Below, piece after piece: positions 14,812 to 36,185 of a DNA stretch of 36,185 nt (positions are counted from its first letter, which is position 1; each line of letters begins with the position of its first letter). This DNA comes from a virus: UHGV virus genome UHGV-0335474; one strand, 5' to 3'. The translations under genes were made by a program, and so were the position numbers. The notes under the pieces were generated by a model that was not told the DNA's origin, made no database searches, and saw nothing but the letters and a program-made list of their open reading frames with translations.

Positions 14812-15501
14812 ATGTTATATGCATTTAAGCTGGGCAGAAAACTGCGCGGCGAGGAACCTTATTGCCCTGAAAAAGGCGGGAAAGGTGGCTCTGATAAAAG
14901 TGCAAAGTATGCCGCAGAAGCTCAGAAGTATGCCGCAGACCTGCAAAATCAGCAGTTCAATACCATCATGAACAACCTGAAGCCGTTTACTCCTCTGGCT
15001 GGGAAGTATGTCGGCAGCCTTGAGAACTTATCGTCTCTGGAAGGGCAAGGTCAGGCACTTAACCAGTATTACAACTCTCAGCAGTACAAAGATCTTGCTG
15101 GTCAGGCTCGCTATCAGAGTCTGGCGGCAGCGGAAGCAACAGGTGGATTGGGTTCCACCGCAACCAGTAATCAGTTAGCAACAATCGCACCAACGCTTGG
15201 TCAGCAATGGCTGTCTGGACAAATGAACAATTACAACAACCTGGCAAATATCGGTCTTGGCGCTCTTCAGGGGCAGGCAAACGCCGGGCAGACATATGCC
15301 AACAACATGAGTCAGATTTCGCAGCAAAGTGCGGCTCTTGCAGCGGCAAATGCCAACAGACCATCAGCAATGCAATCTGCTATTGGCGGAGGTGCGTCTG
15401 GTGCTATTGCTGGGGCCGGACTTGCGAAATTAATTGGTTCATCAACTCCGTGGGGGGCTGCGATCGGCGGCGGTCTTGGTCTGCTTGGCTCGTTGTTTTA
15501 A
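14812..15501 (+). CDS. Ejection (internal virion) protein, P22 gp7-like
   Basis: 229 aa, Gly/Ala/Gln-rich with hydrophobic C-terminus; position in the gp7-gp20-gp16 ejection cluster. Confidence 0.6.
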   Translation: MLYAFKLGRKLRGEEPYCPEKGGKGGSDKSAKYAAEAQKYAADLQNQQFNTIMNNLKPFTPLAGKYVGSLENLSSLEGQGQALNQYYNSQQYKDLAGQARYQSLAAAEATGGLGSTATSNQLATIAPTLGQQWLSGQMNNYNNLANIGLGALQGQANAGQTYANNMSQISQQSAALAAANANRPSAMQSAIGGGASGAIAGAGLAKLIGSSTPWGAAIGGGLGLLGSLF

Positions 15502-29059: not shown

Positions 29060-29782
29060 TTATAGCTCCTTTAATCGAGGCGGTTCTGGTAGAGGCATCC
29101 AGTGGGTTACACCGCCAATTGGCTCATCGTCGTCGTACTCCAATGCGGCTATATAGAACCCGTCACGACGAGAATAAGAAATCCCGGACATTACAATGCC
29201 ATCCGAAACAACAATAATGTCACCCGTTTCTTTCGGCATTCGCTCACTACAGCTTATCCAACCATCCGGAGTTCCCGGAGAGTTGCCATTTACATCGAAG
29301 TTTGGCTCTGCGTCCTGAACCAGGAGGATGTAACCATTCTTGGCTGTATCAAGTTCTAACGCCTCGGTGACGGTGCCGAAATAGCGATTACCTAAATCAG
29401 CATCACAAGTGCTTACATCAATGGAAACTTCCATGCCTTCGATTAATTCTGCCAAGTTGTAAGCTTGGCTTACAGGTTCGGCTTCCAATTCTGCTATGCG
29501 CTTATTTGCTGCTTCCAGCTCATCCAGCAGCGCCAAGACGGTAGCAGGATTGGCTGCGGCGATGAATTCAGCATTGGCCTGCTGTTCCATTTGGAAATCT
29601 TCATCGAAACCGCTTTCAGGATGCGCTCCTTCAATTCTGCAAATGGGAAGATATCCAGCAGCCTTGCGATGAATTAGCGCATCATCACCATCAAATCGGC
29701 CCTCTCCATATTCGAGCGACCACGCACCACACGTTGCTTTCTCTGCCTTAGCACGCAGTGCCTGATAGTCAATTTCGCTCAC
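29060..29782 (-). CDS. Ead/Ea22-like protein with DUF551-like C-terminal domain
   Basis: 240 aa, [21 protein letters not shown]... with a coiled-coil middle and a C-terminus WISCSERMPKE...HWMPLPEPP typical of the family. Confidence 0.6.
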   Translation of the reverse strand: MSEIDYQALRAKAEKATCGAWSLEYGEGRFDGDDALIHRKAAGYLPICRIEGAHPESGFDEDFQMEQQANAEFIAAANPATVLALLDELEAANKRIAELEAEPVSQAYNLAELIEGMEVSIDVSTCDADLGNRYFGTVTEALELDTAKNGYILLVQDAEPNFDVNGNSPGTPDGWISCSERMPKETGDIIVVSDGIVMSGISYSRRDGFYIAALEYDDDEPIGGVTHWMPLPEPPRLKEL

Positions 29783-30267
29783 TGTTTGCCTCCTTTGCGA
29801 AGCTGGCCGGCGAACAAACGTACACTAGACGCTTCACTGCGTAGAAACTTAACGGCATAATCAAAACCACCTCGTTCTGCGTCGTCTGCTGCGTTGTCGA
29901 GGTTATCTGCGTACATCTCCACGCCCTGCGCCCGTACTTCAGCCAGAAAAGCATCGGTGGCTGGGGTTTCAGGTATCTGTCTCCTCATCCGTTCTATTGC
30001 ATGATTGAATCCGAAGTCTTCAGCAAGAGATACGTCATCCATATTGTCATTGTCAGCATCAATATCCCGTAGTTGAGGAATTGCAGACTTTATTCCCGCA
30101 TTCTCCACCGCCAGTGCCGCGCACTTGGCCTCAGCTTCAGCAAATTTACGCACCAGATATTCAGCATTTGTTTCGTTAACCTTTAAATCTCGTGGGATGC
30201 ATTTACCTTTCAGAAAACCATCCATCTCAATTAGTGACATTTGTTTCATTTCTTCCCACTCCGCCAC
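29779..30267 (-). CDS. Hypothetical early-left operon protein
   Basis: 162 aa, acidic; overlapping stop/start with the downstream gene. Confidence 0.5.
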
Positions 30268-30406
30268 ATCGCATTCAGATATTTGTTTTGATTCACTGAT
30301 GGAAAAGAATTTCTCTTAAGCAATTCCTCTCTCGATGGCATTGGCTTTACGCGTTGGCGAATAATCATTTCTGCCGGAAGAATGCCGGGATTGTATGCAA
30401 GTCCTC

Positions 30407-30697
30407 TCATGATTTACTCTCCACGAACTGGTCAATAGCCATGCTAAGTGACACACCTAAAGTTTCGATATGCTGCTGAATATCCTGTAGCGTCTGCGCC
30501 TGAGATAACAGAATTTCACGGTTTAATAACTCTTTAACCAGATGCTCAAACTTGCTGTAATAACCGATACGGCTTAGTGTTTCTTTCCCTGCATTCTCAC
30601 CTTCTTTGATAATTCCTCTTTCGCTAAGAATCAGGTCGTGTTTGGTTCCGGTAATAACGTATTTTCCGAGGTCGATGTTCAGCTTCATTGTTTTCAT
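30407..30697 (-). CDS. Hypothetical protein
   Basis: Start at MKTMKLNID after a GAGGAG SD; the track ORF from 30838 overlaps the upstream gene. Confidence 0.45.
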
Positions 30698-30707
30698 TGT
30701 TAACTCC

Positions 30708-31004
30708 TCAGTCATTACTGATAGCGCCATAGCGTGAGCGGTAATTACGCAGCCGCGGGTCGATATATTCAGGGAAGTGGGTATATGTGGCTTTGCGGAA
30801 TGGTCGGATTGATGTTTCGTTTGTTCGGTCCTTCTCATCTTTTAACGCGAGTTGTATATCGCGTCGGTACATCCGTTCTGCTTTTGTTTCTGGTGGCAGA
30901 TCGATAAACGTGTCGAAAATGTTTTTGATATTTTCCAGCACCTCCGCCTTGGAGCTACCGGAGCAATTGCGCGGGTCATCCGCACCATACAGAGGCGCTG
31001 GCAT
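30708..31004 (-). CDS. Hypothetical protein
   Basis: 98-aa ORF in the operon series. Confidence 0.4.
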   Translation of the reverse strand: MPAPLYGADDPRNCSGSSKAEVLENIKNIFDTFIDLPPETKAERMYRRDIQLALKDEKDRTNETSIRPFRKATYTHFPEYIDPRLRNYRSRYGAISND

Positions 31005-31027
31005 AATGGGAGCCTTATTTTCAGTAA

Positions 31028-31615
31028 TCAGAAAGCAGGGTAATCGTTCTGGCTGTAACCATAATCATCTGCATGATTCTGGCTTACGTTTTTAGAGCGA
31101 TTGTCTTTATCTTTGAGATTGGCAACCATGTTGGCGATAGTTTCTGGTTGCTTGCCTTCTGCCTTTTCTTTAAGGGTTTGACCTGTTTGTGCAATAAACG
31201 GGATGCGTATTTCCATCTGGTAGTTGTCTGCGCCAGTCTTTTTGTTTGTGGTTAATACTTTCTGGAGCACTAACCCGATTTTCTTTCCATGAAATTCAGG
31301 TGCAACAAATTTACTGGCGGAAACCATATGCTGCGTTAATTGTCCAATCCCGGCACACCCCATCATGGCGTGAACGACATTTGCGCCAAATTTGTTTTCC
31401 GTTCCGTCATTTTTCTGAACACAGACGCTAAGATATTGGATTTTACGTCCGTCGTCGGATTCTCCAGAAAACTCAATAAATTTGGCTCCTTTTTCTGATT
31501 GCTTTAGTTCTGCTTCAGTAATGGTAATGATATGGGCGCCAGTTTCGTTAATAAAACCACCTTGCCCTGCGGTCAGTGCTGCTTCTTCGTTATAAGTAAA
31601 AATCACGTTGCTCAT
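31028..31615 (-). CDS. Hypothetical protein, possible ssDNA-binding partner of the Sak4-like ATPase
   Basis: 195 aa, translationally coupled to the upstream ATPase; acidic aromatic C-terminal tail (DDYGYSQNDYPAF) reminiscent of SSB tails. Confidence 0.4.
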   Translation of the reverse strand: MSNVIFTYNEEAALTAGQGGFINETGAHIITITEAELKQSEKGAKFIEFSGESDDGRKIQYLSVCVQKNDGTENKFGANVVHAMMGCAGIGQLTQHMVSASKFVAPEFHGKKIGLVLQKVLTTNKKTGADNYQMEIRIPFIAQTGQTLKEKAEGKQPETIANMVANLKDKDNRSKNVSQNHADDYGYSQNDYPAF

Positions 31616-32292
31616 GCGGCGTTTTCCTTAATTTGATGAACATTATTGATGCCGTAGTAATCACAAACAGTGGCATCGACGAAAGAGAGATCGTTATCAA
31701 TCTCATTGGAATCAAACATTCCCATTGGGGATTTGACAGTGTCTGCACCGTTGTTTTTCGTGGTGAAAAAGAACTGGTCATCGCGGGTAAGAGTGCGAAG
31801 AACTATAGTAAACATGCCTTCGACAGTGATTTTCTCGTCCAGCATTTTGCCGATAGTTTTCATTTTCACGCGCCCCATAGGGGTTTCTTCGGTATGTGCA
31901 AGAAAATAGACTCTCAGGTCATCAGGTGCATCCTGTGCAGCCTTAATCACCTCCCATGCGTGGCGGCCTATCTCAGTAAATTTATCAAACGATTTTTCTT
32001 CTGAGCGGCGCATAAACTCATTGCTCATCACATACTGGAAGTCATCAACAATAACGATTCTTTTTCCGTATTCGTGAGCACGCTTAATTACAGCAACTAT
32101 TACGTCCCATTTGTCAGTGGTAACTACGGTTCCTTTTTTTGCTCTGGCATCCCATGCAAGCCAGTCTTTTGATTTAAATGGTAGCGGCTTGCCTATTGGT
32201 TTTATAAGTATTGCTTCCTCTGGATTGATATTTCTCATGCTGGTTGATTTTCCGGTGCCAGATTCACCGAGTATTAATGTCGCAGTTCCCAT
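31612..32292 (-). CDS. Sak4-like RecA-fold ATPase (recombination / single-strand annealing)
   Basis: 226 aa; N-terminal Walker A GESGTGKST and Walker B-like IVIVDDF. Occupies the position of lambda Red genes. Confidence 0.6.
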   Translation of the reverse strand: MGTATLILGESGTGKSTSMRNINPEEAILIKPIGKPLPFKSKDWLAWDARAKKGTVVTTDKWDVIVAVIKRAHEYGKRIVIVDDFQYVMSNEFMRRSEEKSFDKFTEIGRHAWEVIKAAQDAPDDLRVYFLAHTEETPMGRVKMKTIGKMLDEKITVEGMFTIVLRTLTRDDQFFFTTKNNGADTVKSPMGMFDSNEIDNDLSFVDATVCDYYGINNVHQIKENAA

Positions 32293-32300
32293 AATTTGCC

Positions 32301-32501
32301 TCAGAATGGTAATTCGGATGGGCAGGAAAGAAATTCGCGCTCATTCATGCGCTCTCTTTGCGCCTGCCATAAACAAAGTTGTTTCTTTGATTTATCTCCC
32401 GCTTTACGCCAGTAACGAGCCTCAGCAATGTGATATTCTCTTTTTAATCGACTTAACTCTGGAGTTTTCGCCAGTTCTACCGGAATCATTTTGACCTCCA
32501 T
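32301..32501 (-). CDS. Hypothetical protein
   Basis: 66-aa basic ORF between kil and the ATPase. Confidence 0.4.
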   Translation of the reverse strand: MEVKMIPVELAKTPELSRLKREYHIAEARYWRKAGDKSKKQLCLWQAQRERMNEREFLSCPSELPF

Positions 32502-32599
32502 TTTCTGTAGGCTTCTACGGCTTCACGAAACATCTTTTCATCGCCAATAAAAGTGGCGATAGTGAATTTAGTCTGGATAGCCATAAGTGTTTTATCCAT
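32486..32599 (-). CDS. kil: Kil-like protein (host killing / FtsZ inhibition)
   Basis: MDKTLMAIQTKFTIATFIGDEKMFREAVEAYRKWRSK matches the lambda Kil N-terminus as recalled; overlaps the cIII 3' end as in lambda. Confidence 0.6.
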   Translation of the reverse strand: MDKTLMAIQTKFTIATFIGDEKMFREAVEAYRKWRSK

Positions 32600-32732
32600 T
32601 TTTGGGAACTCCTGGCTGATTAAGTATGTCGATAAGGCGTTTCCATCCATCACGTAATTTACGTGTGATTCGTTCAAGTAAAGATTCGGAAGGGCAGCCA
32701 GCAACAGGCCACCCTGCAATGGCATATTGCAT
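32592..32732 (-). CDS. cIII: CIII (FtsH inhibitor protecting CII)
   Basis: MQYAIAGWPVAGCPSESLLERITRKLRDGWKRLIDILNQPGVPKNG, essentially lambda CIII; AAGGAG SD upstream. Confidence 0.8.
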   Translation of the reverse strand: MQYAIAGWPVAGCPSESLLERITRKLRDGWKRLIDILNQPGVPKNG

Positions 32733-32793
32733 GGTGTGCTCCTTATTTATACATAACGAAAAACGCCTCGAGTGAAGCGTTATTGGTATGCAT

Positions 32794-32818
32794 ATAAAAA
32801 AGCCCTCACACTGGAGGG
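32794..32818 (-). terminator. Rho-independent terminator within the pL operon (tL-like)
   Basis: Minus strand reads CCCTCCAGTGTGAGGG followed by CTTTTTTAT. Confidence 0.6.
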
Positions 32819-32969
32819 CAAAGAAGATTTCCAATAATCAGAACAAGTCGGCTCCTGTTTAGTTACGAGCGACATTGCTCCGTGTATTCACTCGTTGGAA
32901 TGAATACACAGTGCAGTGTTTATTCGTATGCCTGTCTTTTAACCACATCAGGCTCGGTGGTTCCTTCAC

Positions 32970-33016
32970 TTTCCACAGTCAAAGGAAATGGGTAGACTGT
33001 TGTTTCCACAGTCAAA
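32970..33016 (+). repeat. Direct repeats TTTCCACAGTCAAA (x2) overlapping a putative promoter
   Basis: Copies at 32970-32983 and 33003-33016; candidate -35 TTCCAC (32971-76) and -10 TAGACT (32993-98) upstream of the + strand gene at 33030. Confidence 0.45.
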
Positions 33017-33029
33017 AGAAGGAAATGCT

Positions 33030-33212
33030 ATGTCTAGCAACAATGTAGATGTAACTTTGTACCCAGTTCATGCCGCCTATCAGGTCGCACTTGAGCTTGC
33101 AAAGGCTGGGGCATTCAACAACTCAAGCGATCGCGGAACTGCTTTCATTAATGCCTTTGACAAGTTGAAAGAAAGGTTTGAGCAAGTTCAGGAAGAATCT
33201 AACAACAAGTAA
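33030..33212 (+). CDS. Small hypothetical protein transcribed against the pL operon
   Basis: 60 aa after an AAGGA SD; the track ORF from 32988 would translate through the second repeat. Confidence 0.4.
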   Translation: MSSNNVDVTLYPVHAAYQVALELAKAGAFNNSSDRGTAFINAFDKLKERFEQVQEESNNK

Positions 33213-33498
33213 GCTTTGCAAAGCCAGCGATAATGTTGCTGGCTAACATCTCAAACCGTTTTTTCTGAATATCTCTTGATTCTTCATCAATTGGGGGTTC
33301 ACTATTGCTTAGTGCCGTTACATATACGCGAATTGCCGCTGACCGGACATCATCAGGAAGATGTTCAAGTGTACTGGCTCTTGTTTGAATAAGTTCTGCA
33401 ATAGTTGCTTTCTTAATATCTTCAGTTTTTTCATCAATTACTGATATAAAATTTTTTACTGATGCTTCCAAGGAGCTTTCTAATTTACTTAAATCCAT
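33199..33498 (-). CDS. Hypothetical acidic protein immediately downstream of N
   Basis: Start at MDLSKLE, 2 nt after the N stop; the track ORF from 33567 overlaps N. Confidence 0.45.
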   Translation of the reverse strand: MDLSKLESSLEASVKNFISVIDEKTEDIKKATIAELIQTRASTLEHLPDDVRSAAIRVYVTALSNSEPPIDEESRDIQKKRFEMLASNIIAGFAKLTCC

Positions 33499-33500
33499 AA

Positions 33501-33884
33501 TTACCTCGCTGTCAGTTGTTTTGATTTCCGATAGCCTGCCGCGTAAAGAGCTACATTTGGAAGACATACACCAGTTTCTGGTTGCTTATGTCCAAACTCA
33601 TTCGCGTACACAACGGCCGCTCGCTCCAGATTGCGTCTGTATTCTTTCTGTTGCCAGATCACGTCCTGTGCCATGAACTTAATTGGCTTAGCGTCTTCTA
33701 TGCGCTCAGGCGTTTCGTGAGTACCTTTAGCCTGAATCTGCGCTCTGCTTAGAGTAGGGCGGTGTAATACTTCTGAACTTATTGCTTCTTCGCGGGCCAG
33801 TACGCCGTTAGCTAATGCCTTTGCCTTTAAATGCTCACGACGACGAGAACGTGAATTGCCTTTGAACTGAGTTCTGCGTGTCAT
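33501..33884 (-). CDS. N: Antitermination protein N (P22 gene 24-like)
   Basis: 127 aa with an N-terminal Arg-rich motif (GNSRSRRREHLKAKA); the C-terminus ...VALYAAGYRKSKQLTAR matches the P22 gp24 end as recalled. First gene downstream of pL. Confidence 0.75.
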   Translation of the reverse strand: MTRRTQFKGNSRSRRREHLKAKALANGVLAREEAISSEVLHRPTLSRAQIQAKGTHETPERIEDAKPIKFMAQDVIWQQKEYRRNLERAAVVYANEFGHKQPETGVCLPNVALYAAGYRKSKQLTAR

Positions 33885-34049
33885 ATAGACCTCCTGATGA
33901 ACTTTGGTGGTGTGGTAGGTGGGAGACCCATTTCGACCTGTTTCGGCCTACTTCAATTCGGCAATAGTCCTGCAGGCCTCGCCGCTTTACGTGCGACATA
34001 TTCCCGTCCATGAACCCTTCACCACACCCCAAAGTTCACTTTGGTTATT

Positions 34050-34064
34050 GCGCTTTGTCAGCGC
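34050..34064 (-). promoter_or_regulatory. nutL boxB (P22-type GCGCTGACAAAGCGC hairpin)
   Basis: Minus strand reads GCGCT-GACAA-AGCGC between pL and N. Confidence 0.6.
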
Positions 34065-34132
34065 CGTAGATTCATATTCGAATCGTTGTATATTCACCGC
34101 CCTGGTGAGTAGTGCGTCCTGCTGATGTGTTT

Positions 34133-34195
34133 AGTATCACCGCCAGTGGTATTTATGTCAACACCGCCAGAGATAATTTATCACCGCAGATGGTT
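34133..34195 (-). promoter_or_regulatory. Lambda-type OL1-OL2-OL3 operators with pL promoter
   Basis: TATCACCGCCAGTGGTA (34135-51), CAACACCGCCAGAGATA (34159-75), TATCACCGCAGATGGTT (34179-95); minus-strand -35 TTGACA and -10 GATACT. Matches the lambda OL region as I recall it. Confidence 0.85.
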
Positions 34196-34352
34196 ATCTG
34201 TATGTTTTTTATATAGATTTATTTTTTTGCAGGGGTGTGTGGCTTGGGAGGTGATCGAGAGATCTGAATTGCGATGTTTAGTGAGTTGTATCTATTAATT
34301 TTCAAATAAATACAATTGGTTATGTGTTATTGGGTGAAGGGGATCGTGAGGC

Positions 34353-34378
34353 AAAGAAAACCCGGCACTGGGGCCGGG
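34353..34378 (-). terminator. timm-like rho-independent terminator at the end of the cI operon
   Basis: Minus strand reads a CCCGGC...GCCGGG hairpin followed by TTTTCTTTG; homologous to the lambda terminator downstream of rexB. Confidence 0.65.
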
Positions 34379-34387
34379 TTGGTTGAT

Positions 34388-35409
34388 TTATAGTTTAACC
34401 ACCATCCTATCAATGGCTTCTAAGCAAGATTGTTTATATGGGGCATTAACTTTTACCCTTCTGTTCATAACTCGTACACTACCTGTTGGTAGGATCGAAA
34501 ATGGACATCCTTTAGCAAAGGCAACAACACCAGTTGTCTGAAAATCTTTAATATTTACCACTCCCTCTTCAATATTTTCGAAGTCGAAAATTTCAGGGTT
34601 ACTTAGTAATAGTTGCTGAATATCATTATCGATTGATTTTAGAACTGCGGCATAGGCTGATGCAGGCCCCATATACTGTGTAAGACGGTTTTTTGCGATC
34701 ATATGAACTTTGGGTAGTGGTCTGCTCACCGCGGTAAGTTTGTTTGCAAATGCGTAGGATGCATAAATATCAGATGGCAACTTTAATCCATAAATCAAAG
34801 AGAAAGCATTTTGAATGGCGCGACGAGAGGAATCATCAGCCATAACTGGCAAGATGAGCTTTTCTACAGCAGCTAATGCTATTTGAGTATAAATTGAAAA
34901 ACTAGGATTACAGTCAATAAATAAAACATCGTACTCATCATTTAGATCTTTAATAAGATCATTAATCCAATCAATGATGCTTACCCATGCATTTGTTCCT
35001 GGAATCTGCTGATTAGCAAGAGTGTTGATGGCGTTTGCTTGAAGCTCAAGAAGCGGGTCACCGCATACCAACGATATATTGGCTGGAATATGTTCGTTGA
35101 ATTTTTTTGGGTGTGTCAAATAATCGTGGGCATCAACAATGGGTTTTTGATAAGGCGTCGGGAGGCGCATTTGGAAGTAGCCACCCAAAGTACATCTATT
35201 ATTTATATCATGCCTAGTCAATAAGTTTATGCTTCCATTACCTATTAACCCCCCAAGAAAAAGCTCTGACAAGTTTGCCTGTGGGCACACATCAATAACC
35301 AACACGCGCTCAAGCGGGTGAATTTCTGCATATCTGCAAATAGCTTGAAATGACAGGCTTGTTTTCCCTGTTCCTCCCTTGTTGTTCCATATAGCATATT
35401 TCTTCATCA
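34388..35409 (-). CDS. ParA/MinD-superfamily ATPase with C-terminal extension, in the rexAB slot
   Basis: Deviant Walker A KGGTGKT, A' motif VLVIDVCPQAN, Walker B YDVLFIDCNPS. Start at MMKK (ATG 35409 or 35406) after an AGGAG SD; the track ORF from 35482 is an upstream extension. Confidence 0.7.
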
Positions 35410-35578
35410 TAAACTCCTGGTTAACGATGTCATTGCTGGTTAATGTTTTACCATTGGTAAAGTGGTGCACCAAGAGTGACACGGTAAACCAAATAGATCA
35501 AGACTTATGGTAAACGATTTACCAGTGGTGACATCGATAACCGAAAAAGACTGCATTTCTGCAGCCTGTTTCACACAA

Positions 35579-36185
<607 letters not shown>

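Follow-up and report, generated by a model that had tools for sequence, protein, structure and literature searches.

The sieB locus of lambdoid phages, with its promoter PsieB and the antisense RNA sas, represents a type of control region known since 1993. In that year, Ranade and Poteete reportedly used RNase protection to map where sieB transcription starts, and knocked out the promoter at its −10. The product, SieB, is presumably a membrane protein of about 190 amino acids, the membrane assignment being our own reading. In lambda, sieB is the sole gene between N and ral and lies on the strand opposite pL, about 50 bp after a 35-bp element that recurs in related phages. The P22 record (BK000583) annotates both sieB and esc, together with a sieB promoter at 29690–29720 and a sieB RNA start at 29727.

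According to reviews, sas switches sieB translation from SieB to Esc. A 2026 small-RNA sequencing survey lists the P22 molecule, P22A-sas, as a 127-nt minus-strand RNA found in infected cells only (Table 2 of PMC13397905). We mapped this RNA to BK000583 positions 29636–29762, where it overlaps the first 36 nt of the sieB mRNA (leader, start codon and the next two bases), while its other 91 nt comprise the −10, the first copy of a duplicated motif described below, the 35-bp element and 16 further bases. The P22 sas RNA spans the start codon together with the two copies of the motif and the conserved hairpin, and folds into three hairpins, the last being the GCCUG/CAGGC hairpin of the 35-bp element. 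Here we compare this system with a lambdoid prophage that carries an unrelated small gene in the same place.

A small gene opposite the early-left operon

The window that we analysed, the whole 36,185-nt stretch of virus genome UHGV-0335474, is a lambdoid prophage with its early-left operon on the − strand. The gene for the antitermination protein N (33501–33884, − strand; Pfam N_peptide, E = 1e-14; PHROG 271, E = 2.5e-37) defines the pL operon that the small gene opposes. Upstream of N, at about 34130–34200, lie what we take to be pL and oL of the lambda type, from the well-known lambda PL sequence. At the other end of the region, the cIII gene (32592–32732, − strand) carries the Lambda_thermo thermoregulator, which was the sole match in an Rfam search of 30000–36185 at E ≤ 1, with no family at the repeat region or at the sas position. 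Two intrinsic terminators, like cIII, lie to the left of the gene for a 99-aa protein.

Between N and cIII, on the strand opposite pL, we find a gene for a 60-aa protein, starting with an ATG at 33030 and ending at 33212 (+ strand), so that the order is the same as in lambda and P22. The preliminary description of this locus had placed the ORF on the + strand, convergent with early-left transcription, and had made much depend on its conservation in related prophages. Both points hold: the ORF faces N and the pL operon on the − strand, and it is conserved in Citrobacter and Edwardsiella prophages, with homologues 72–98% identical and all but one exactly 60 aa long, and a dN/dS of 0.05–0.09 at a dS of about 1 indicates strong purifying selection. 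The 60-aa ORF is a real gene. This version of the cassette is rare, being present in 1 of 5426 complete E. coli genomes, and an HMM search of 1.8 billion representative proteins returned only about seven small relatives; we set aside the long matches in that search, which look spurious and on our reading reflect repeats or low complexity.

The 60-aa protein belongs to no known family. AlphaFold2 predicts a two-helix hairpin (pLDDT 65), there was no Pfam match at E ≤ 1 and no PADLOC or PDB match, and the PHROGs, NCBIfam and Foldseek BFVD matches were all below threshold. Membership of the SieB/Esc family was considered and rejected, since the protein has no visible resemblance to lambda or P22 SieB and the gene has no meaningful internal-start product.

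Several other features of the region were noted. The homology to lambda ends at 32963 in a megablast comparison with phages, and the lambda-matching stretch (lambda 33471–34430, in pieces) includes a long inverted repeat at 32872–32919, just left of the 35-bp element, with 22-nt arms that are 82% complementary and a 4-nt loop; in the pL transcript this repeat would fold as a long hairpin before the tL2-like terminators. Beyond pL, a gene for a ParA/AAA_31-like ATPase of 364 aa (34388–35482, − strand) lies directly downstream of the cI repressor gene (S24 domain at 35579–36100) and before the lambda-type oL/pL, with a terminator-like hairpin nearby at about 34350–34372. It occupies the rexAB slot of lambda and is accordingly a candidate for an accessory or defence gene expressed by the prophage; a PADLOC search gave no match for the 364-aa protein.

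The 60-aa gene is paired with a convergent partner

The first gene after N in the pL operon encodes the 99-aa protein (33199–33498, − strand, starting MDLSKLE), and its 3′ end overlaps that of the 60-aa gene by 14 nt. In E. coli MS 21-1, whose copy of this prophage is 99.5% identical, PGAP annotates the longest ORF for this partner, which is 122 aa and overlaps the 3′ end of N by 67 nt (33501–33567); we adopted the MDLSKLE start, 2 nt past the N stop codon, which is used in related records. In every locus, the small gene abuts or overlaps (by 4–14 nt) the 3′ end of an opposite-strand gene of 58–106 aa, which in most loci directly follows N, and the pair is retained even where the small protein has fallen to 40% identity. 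The conserved core of the partner is its C-terminal part of about 58 aa, and tblastn found the family only in loci of the motif class of the window (class B, see below) among more than 160 fetched loci. The 60-aa gene is always paired tail-to-tail with this gene, which is an obligate partner.

For the 99-aa protein, AlphaFold2 gives three helices (pLDDT 80), and we found no significant match in Pfam, PHROG, NCBIfam, PADLOC or PDB and no DNA-binding family. Foldseek searches of viral models with the small protein and the partner gave nothing below E = 0.5. A few residues shared between the small protein and the C-terminal half of the partner raised the idea that the two are paralogues, which was discarded at an hhalign probability of 0.3%. 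A type II toxin-antitoxin pair was also rejected, as the genes are convergent and form separate transcription units; the search of toxin-antitoxin families produced only a sub-threshold match, to VapB, with E = 0.077 and 13.5 bits where 60 were required.

The junction of the two genes is covered by a compound stem-loop (33167–33265) with a minimum free energy of −34.2 kcal/mol and a z-score of −2.9. It is followed by a T-run on the + strand and by TTTCTTTC on the − strand. Six loci preserve its consensus structure, and at six of the pairs both partners have changed. Because U-runs accompany the stem-loop on either strand, it is a candidate terminator for both directions.

The control region resembles that of sieB

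The leader of the 60-aa gene lies next to the 35-bp element (32929–32963) that is found upstream of sieB-slot promoters and contains a hairpin with a stem of GCCTG (32930–32934) and CAGGC (32949–32953) and a 14-nt loop. The element is 97–100% identical in lambda (34396–34430), P22, HK620 and many other phages, and is carried by 990 of 5426 complete E. coli genomes (about 18%). In Citrobacter and Edwardsiella variants the stem still pairs through U-A to G-C changes. The element is nearly invariant, with strikingly constant loop bases, although the flanks on both sides are mosaic, and may be a recombination boundary or the 3′ hairpin of an antisense RNA.

Beyond the element, two exact copies of TTTCCACAGTCAAA lie at 32970–32983 and 33003–33016, 33 nt apart from start to start, as the preliminary description had reported and as both a reading of the sequence and a repeat search established; the match can be extended to 18 nt at 94%. 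GGAAATG follows both copies, as was also described, directly in the case of copy 1 (32984–32990) and after the four bases AGAA in the case of copy 2 (33021–33027). The first six bases of copy 1, TTTCCA (32970–32975), form a predicted −35 hexamer if a 17-nt spacer to the predicted −10, TAGACT (32993–32998, + strand), is assumed. Copy 1 is near-invariant in 12 distinct leaders, and its TTTCC can pair with GGAAA at 32984–32988.

The alignment with P22 supports these assignments. TAGACT aligns with TAAACT, the hexamer that ends the annotated P22 promoter on its 3′ side, 7 nt ahead of the RNA start given in that record, and the pattern TAnnnT is kept in all variants. Copy 2 begins 4 nt past TAGACT, and the annotated sieB RNA start of P22 is the first base of motif copy 2 of that phage; by alignment, copy 2 of the window would hold the mRNA 5′ end, and transcription would start at about 33005, inside this copy. 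A 10-mer, ACCCCTACAG, occurs twice in P22, lambda and HK620, exactly at the positions of the two copies in the window. The earlier placing of one copy over the −35 and the other just past the −10 agrees with the annotated P22 promoter and RNA start, and homology with P22 likewise favours the proposal of a separately promoted, moron-like gene opposite pL, which would be prophage-expressed cargo. The Shine-Dalgarno sequence read from the leader, AAGGAA (33019–33024), stands 5 nt before the ATG at 33030, and the GGAA before the start codon is kept in all loci of the 60-aa family. An in-frame ATG further upstream (32988), which would give a 74-aa ORF, was rejected, as it precedes the inferred transcription start and is out of frame in loci with a 54-aa homologue.

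As judged by the consensus, the promoter is weak. A generic promoter scan of 32700–33600 reported nothing, because the site scores 8/12 and the cut-off was 9/12; on our reading the P22 sieB promoter scores lower than the window site, mainly through a poor −35. Taken with the gene order, these correspondences indicate that the small-gene region is probably a sieB-type prophage cassette, that is, a variant of the sieB/sas control region with other cargo. The preliminary description had recognised neither this locus identity, nor the antisense RNA that lies opposite the repeats in P22, nor the obligate convergent partner.

The duplicated motif is conserved in three classes

None of 300 sequences simulated from a first-order Markov model of the window contained an exact direct repeat of 14 nt or more within a 60-nt span, against two such repeats in the real window, the other being a coding repeat at 14905/14926. 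This second repeat (14905–14939) is an exact 14-mer, AAGTATGCCGCAGA, with a 21-nt period inside the ORF at 14812–15501, and gives a 7-residue tandem repeat in a virion-region protein. Tandem Repeats Finder reported nothing, because the repeated stretch is only 14–18 nt long.

The comparative conservation of the motif is stronger evidence than these chance simulations. We scanned IMG/VR and GTDB for the 35-bp element and sorted the more than 140 loci obtained by the 75 nt downstream of it. In class A, which includes lambda, P22 and HK620-like phages, ACCCCTACAG is present twice and the cargo is SieB or a 164-aa protein that on our reading combines a coiled coil with a zinc ribbon. Class B, the class of the window, has TTTCCACAGTCAA twice. 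Class C, from Edwardsiella and Trabulsiella prophages, has TCCCCAACA twice, with a cargo of about 170 aa resembling HK620 hkaP. In all three classes the copies are 32–34 nt apart and flank the TAnnnT hexamer.

To this sample we added class B leaders retrieved by way of small-protein homologues in Citrobacter, Edwardsiella and metagenomic phages. Both copies are kept in these leaders with 0–2 mismatches and the −10 is also kept, while the spacer bases, and even the sequence of the upstream hairpin, vary. The adjacent gene in class B loci has a dS of about 0.8–1.1 or is saturated, so that the constancy of the copies and the −10 reflects a strong constraint on the motif. Judged by these alignments, the duplicated motif is a conserved, class-matched hallmark of sieB-slot control regions, and the distinct motif class present in the window is new.

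The scans also returned loci of other kinds. In a group of class A loci (L038, L074, L090 and similar IMG/VR loci), a GC hairpin of the form CCCCC...GGGGG comes straight after the −10 region and replaces the second motif copy and the cargo; these look like sieB-less cassette remnants. The species-representative genomes with the 35-bp element (L009–L031) belong mostly to unrelated phyla and have it on short or roughly 48-kb contigs, most likely because these assemblies are contaminated with lambda DNA. A metagenome scan with the motif gave chance 14-mer matches only and zero new loci.

Within E. coli prophages, an identical class B leader with both copies stands before three cargo genes: that of the 60-aa protein, that of a homologue of 54 aa, and that of a protein of 84 aa without evident similarity to the 60-aa one. 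The 84-aa cargo replaces the 60-aa gene in two loci (L002 and L003, from E. coli F5505-C1 and PEC41; locus coordinates about 2091–2700), where the C-terminus of the partner is a different one and extends 40–52 aa further, encoded opposite the 84-aa gene and giving an antisense coding overlap of 62–98 nt. No PADLOC family was found for the 60-aa, 99-aa, 54-aa, 84-aa and 97-aa proteins.

Proposed mechanism and role of the duplicated motif

By position relative to P22 sas, the pL transcript of the window would contain a sas-like antisense segment at 32913–33034 (− strand), a stretch that includes the start codon and Shine-Dalgarno sequence as well as the two motif copies and the conserved hairpin. 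The predicted segment does not fold better than shuffled sequence (z = −0.56), and variants disagree in the hairpins formed around copy 2. The translational switch by which sas action is defined in P22 cannot work in the same way here, because the cargo is unrelated to SieB and has no Esc-like start.

We propose the following mechanism. The weak σ70 promoter (TTTCCA, TAGACT, start at about 33005), a homologue of PsieB of P22 and lambda in both its placing and its architecture, would transcribe the 60-aa gene rightward, against the repressed pL operon, and the protein would be made in the lysogen because its gene would be transcribed while pL is repressed. When pL fires, either on induction or from a superinfecting relative, N-antiterminated transcription would cross the cassette and occlude the promoter, and the read-through would also yield the equivalent of sas over the Shine-Dalgarno sequence and start codon, turning off translation of the 60-aa protein. 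The gene would in this way fall silent while the phage itself grows lytically, or when a relative with the same leader superinfects. The duplicated motif, a hallmark kept constant by selection, would form part of the antisense RNA rather than an operator for the cargo protein, and the 60-aa protein would act together with the 99-aa early protein.

A different role for the copies would be that of DNA operators, bound by the 99-aa early protein or by a host factor, such that binding over the −35 and the +1, three helical turns apart, switches the promoter of the small gene off or on. Direct repeats 32–33 bp apart that flank a −10 have the geometry of a classical repressor site, and several other observations fit: the sequence itself, and not merely the match of one copy to the other, is conserved across very divergent loci, the 99-aa family occurs only with the class B motif among all the fetched loci (more than 160), and RNA folding gives the copies no consistent structure. 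However, lambda and P22 have the same layout with another motif, no gene between N (or 24) and sieB, and repressors and N proteins that differ, so that these phages offer no co-varying phage protein. The 99-aa protein, moreover, has a plain three-helix model without a DNA-binding family match, and a single host factor would need to read three different motifs. We therefore consider binding of a protein to the copies unlikely.

The copies could also be twin target elements at the RNA level, with the antisense RNA carrying two segments complementary to the same mRNA 5′ end and pairing with it faster or more strongly. It would then be understandable that P22 sas holds both copies though only copy 2 is in the sieB mRNA, and that, whichever of the three motif classes is considered, the two copies agree in sequence. 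In native combinations the promoter unit shows a weak extra similarity to the leader/start-codon unit (p = 0.024 in P22, 0.009 in locus L172 and 0.07 in the window), which is absent where the cargo has been swapped, but these p-values are weak and not mutually independent. Two of the three loci with differing copies differ, on our reading, by a transition that would give a G-U pair in this orientation; L169, on the other hand, has two non-wobble mismatches between its copies. Minimum-free-energy folds do not put the copies in equivalent loops, and the RNA of the window is not unusually structured. On balance, we regard twin targets as quite unlikely. A more specific form, in which the antisense RNA presents the copies in twin identical hairpin loops, was kept only as a minor alternative: in P22 the two copies do not fold equivalently, other loci give a mixture of folds, and the z-score in the window is the one given above.

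The preliminary description had also suggested an autoregulated small regulator, with the 60-aa protein acting on its own promoter through both copies. A small gene right after repeated promoter elements is indeed the typical layout of an autoregulator, but the suggestion is not supported by comparison between loci, as the identical leader drives three cargo genes, of which the 60-aa and 84-aa proteins have no evident similarity. The 60-aa protein has only a two-helix model, with no DNA-binding family match and no helix-turn-helix or ribbon-helix-helix signature. The architecture is, furthermore, common to SieB, on our reading a membrane protein, and to the coiled-coil/zinc-ribbon cargos of 164–175 aa. 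Autoregulation is very unlikely because the identical leader drives unrelated cargo genes. That the two copies are left over from a tandem duplication of the leader and have no function, as a weak resemblance of the promoter unit to the leader/start-codon unit could suggest, is barely credible when both hardly vary next to synonymous sites that are saturated and the layout is the same in three motif classes.

Implications of the sieB slot

Returning to the sas-like reading of the locus, the arrangement of the two genes suggests, by analogy with SieB and Esc from which we infer it, a prophage-expressed exclusion or conversion factor (the 60-aa protein) and its early phage-borne counterpart (the 99-aa protein); in family, defence and fold searches, nothing in either protein sequence or model pointed to exclusion. 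A more far-reaching version, which we put forward tentatively and think rather improbable, is that the pair constitutes an unrecognised two-protein module for exclusion and self-immunity, or for stabilising lysogeny, housed in the sieB slot and switched by a sas-like RNA whose duplicated motif provides two binding segments for one mRNA 5′ end. If this were true, the duplicated motif would be a general design element of every sieB-slot control region, in lambda and P22 as well as elsewhere, that had gone undescribed. Matched within three classes and present inside P22 sas, the duplicated motif is in any case an unexplained feature of a classic antisense system.

More generally, the sieB slot can be viewed as a conserved expression socket, made up of the 35-bp hairpin element, a weak promoter and a leader that would be under antisense control, into which lambdoid prophages plug different cargo genes. 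Because about 18% of complete E. coli genomes contain the socket, it offers a simple route to harvest prophage-expressed genes. The harvest would include candidate exclusion or conversion factors absent from current defence catalogues, and the 60-aa/99-aa pair is one such candidate.

Comparison with known systems

BstA/aba and other prophage defences with cognate self-immunity (PMC8585504) share with our proposal only the concept, in which a factor expressed by the prophage goes with an element, carried by the phage, through which the phage itself is spared. They have no sequence or architectural relation to the window, and PADLOC gave no match here.

The hkaP gene of HK620, annotated as a "putative superinfection exclusion protein", and its Edwardsiella and Trabulsiella relatives are closer, as they are likewise interchangeable cargo behind a sieB-slot promoter and leader. 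In HK620, too, the cargo is separated from N by a gene, hkaQ. The cargo of the hkaP type differs, however, in its size (164–175 aa) and in having, on our reading, a coiled coil with a CxxC zinc ribbon, and hkaQ has no tblastn match to the 99-aa partner.

The closest systems are the P22 sieB-esc-sas locus and lambda sieB (Ranade and Poteete 1993, J Bacteriol 175:4712 and Genes Dev 7:1498). The window has in common with them the slot between N (or 24) and ral or cIII, opposite pL, the 35-bp element, the position of the −10, the duplicated motif over the −35 and at the +1, and a short leader, the opposite strand of which forms the sas antisense RNA in P22. In contrast, the motif is TTTCCACAGTCAA in the window and ACCCCTACAG in lambda and P22, and the cargo of the window is a predicted soluble helical protein of 60 aa with neither similarity to SieB nor an internal Esc start. 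Lambda and P22 also lack a convergent gene like that of the 99-aa partner, whereas the window has one, and this 60-aa cargo with its conserved convergent partner is an uncharacterised and new occupant of the slot.
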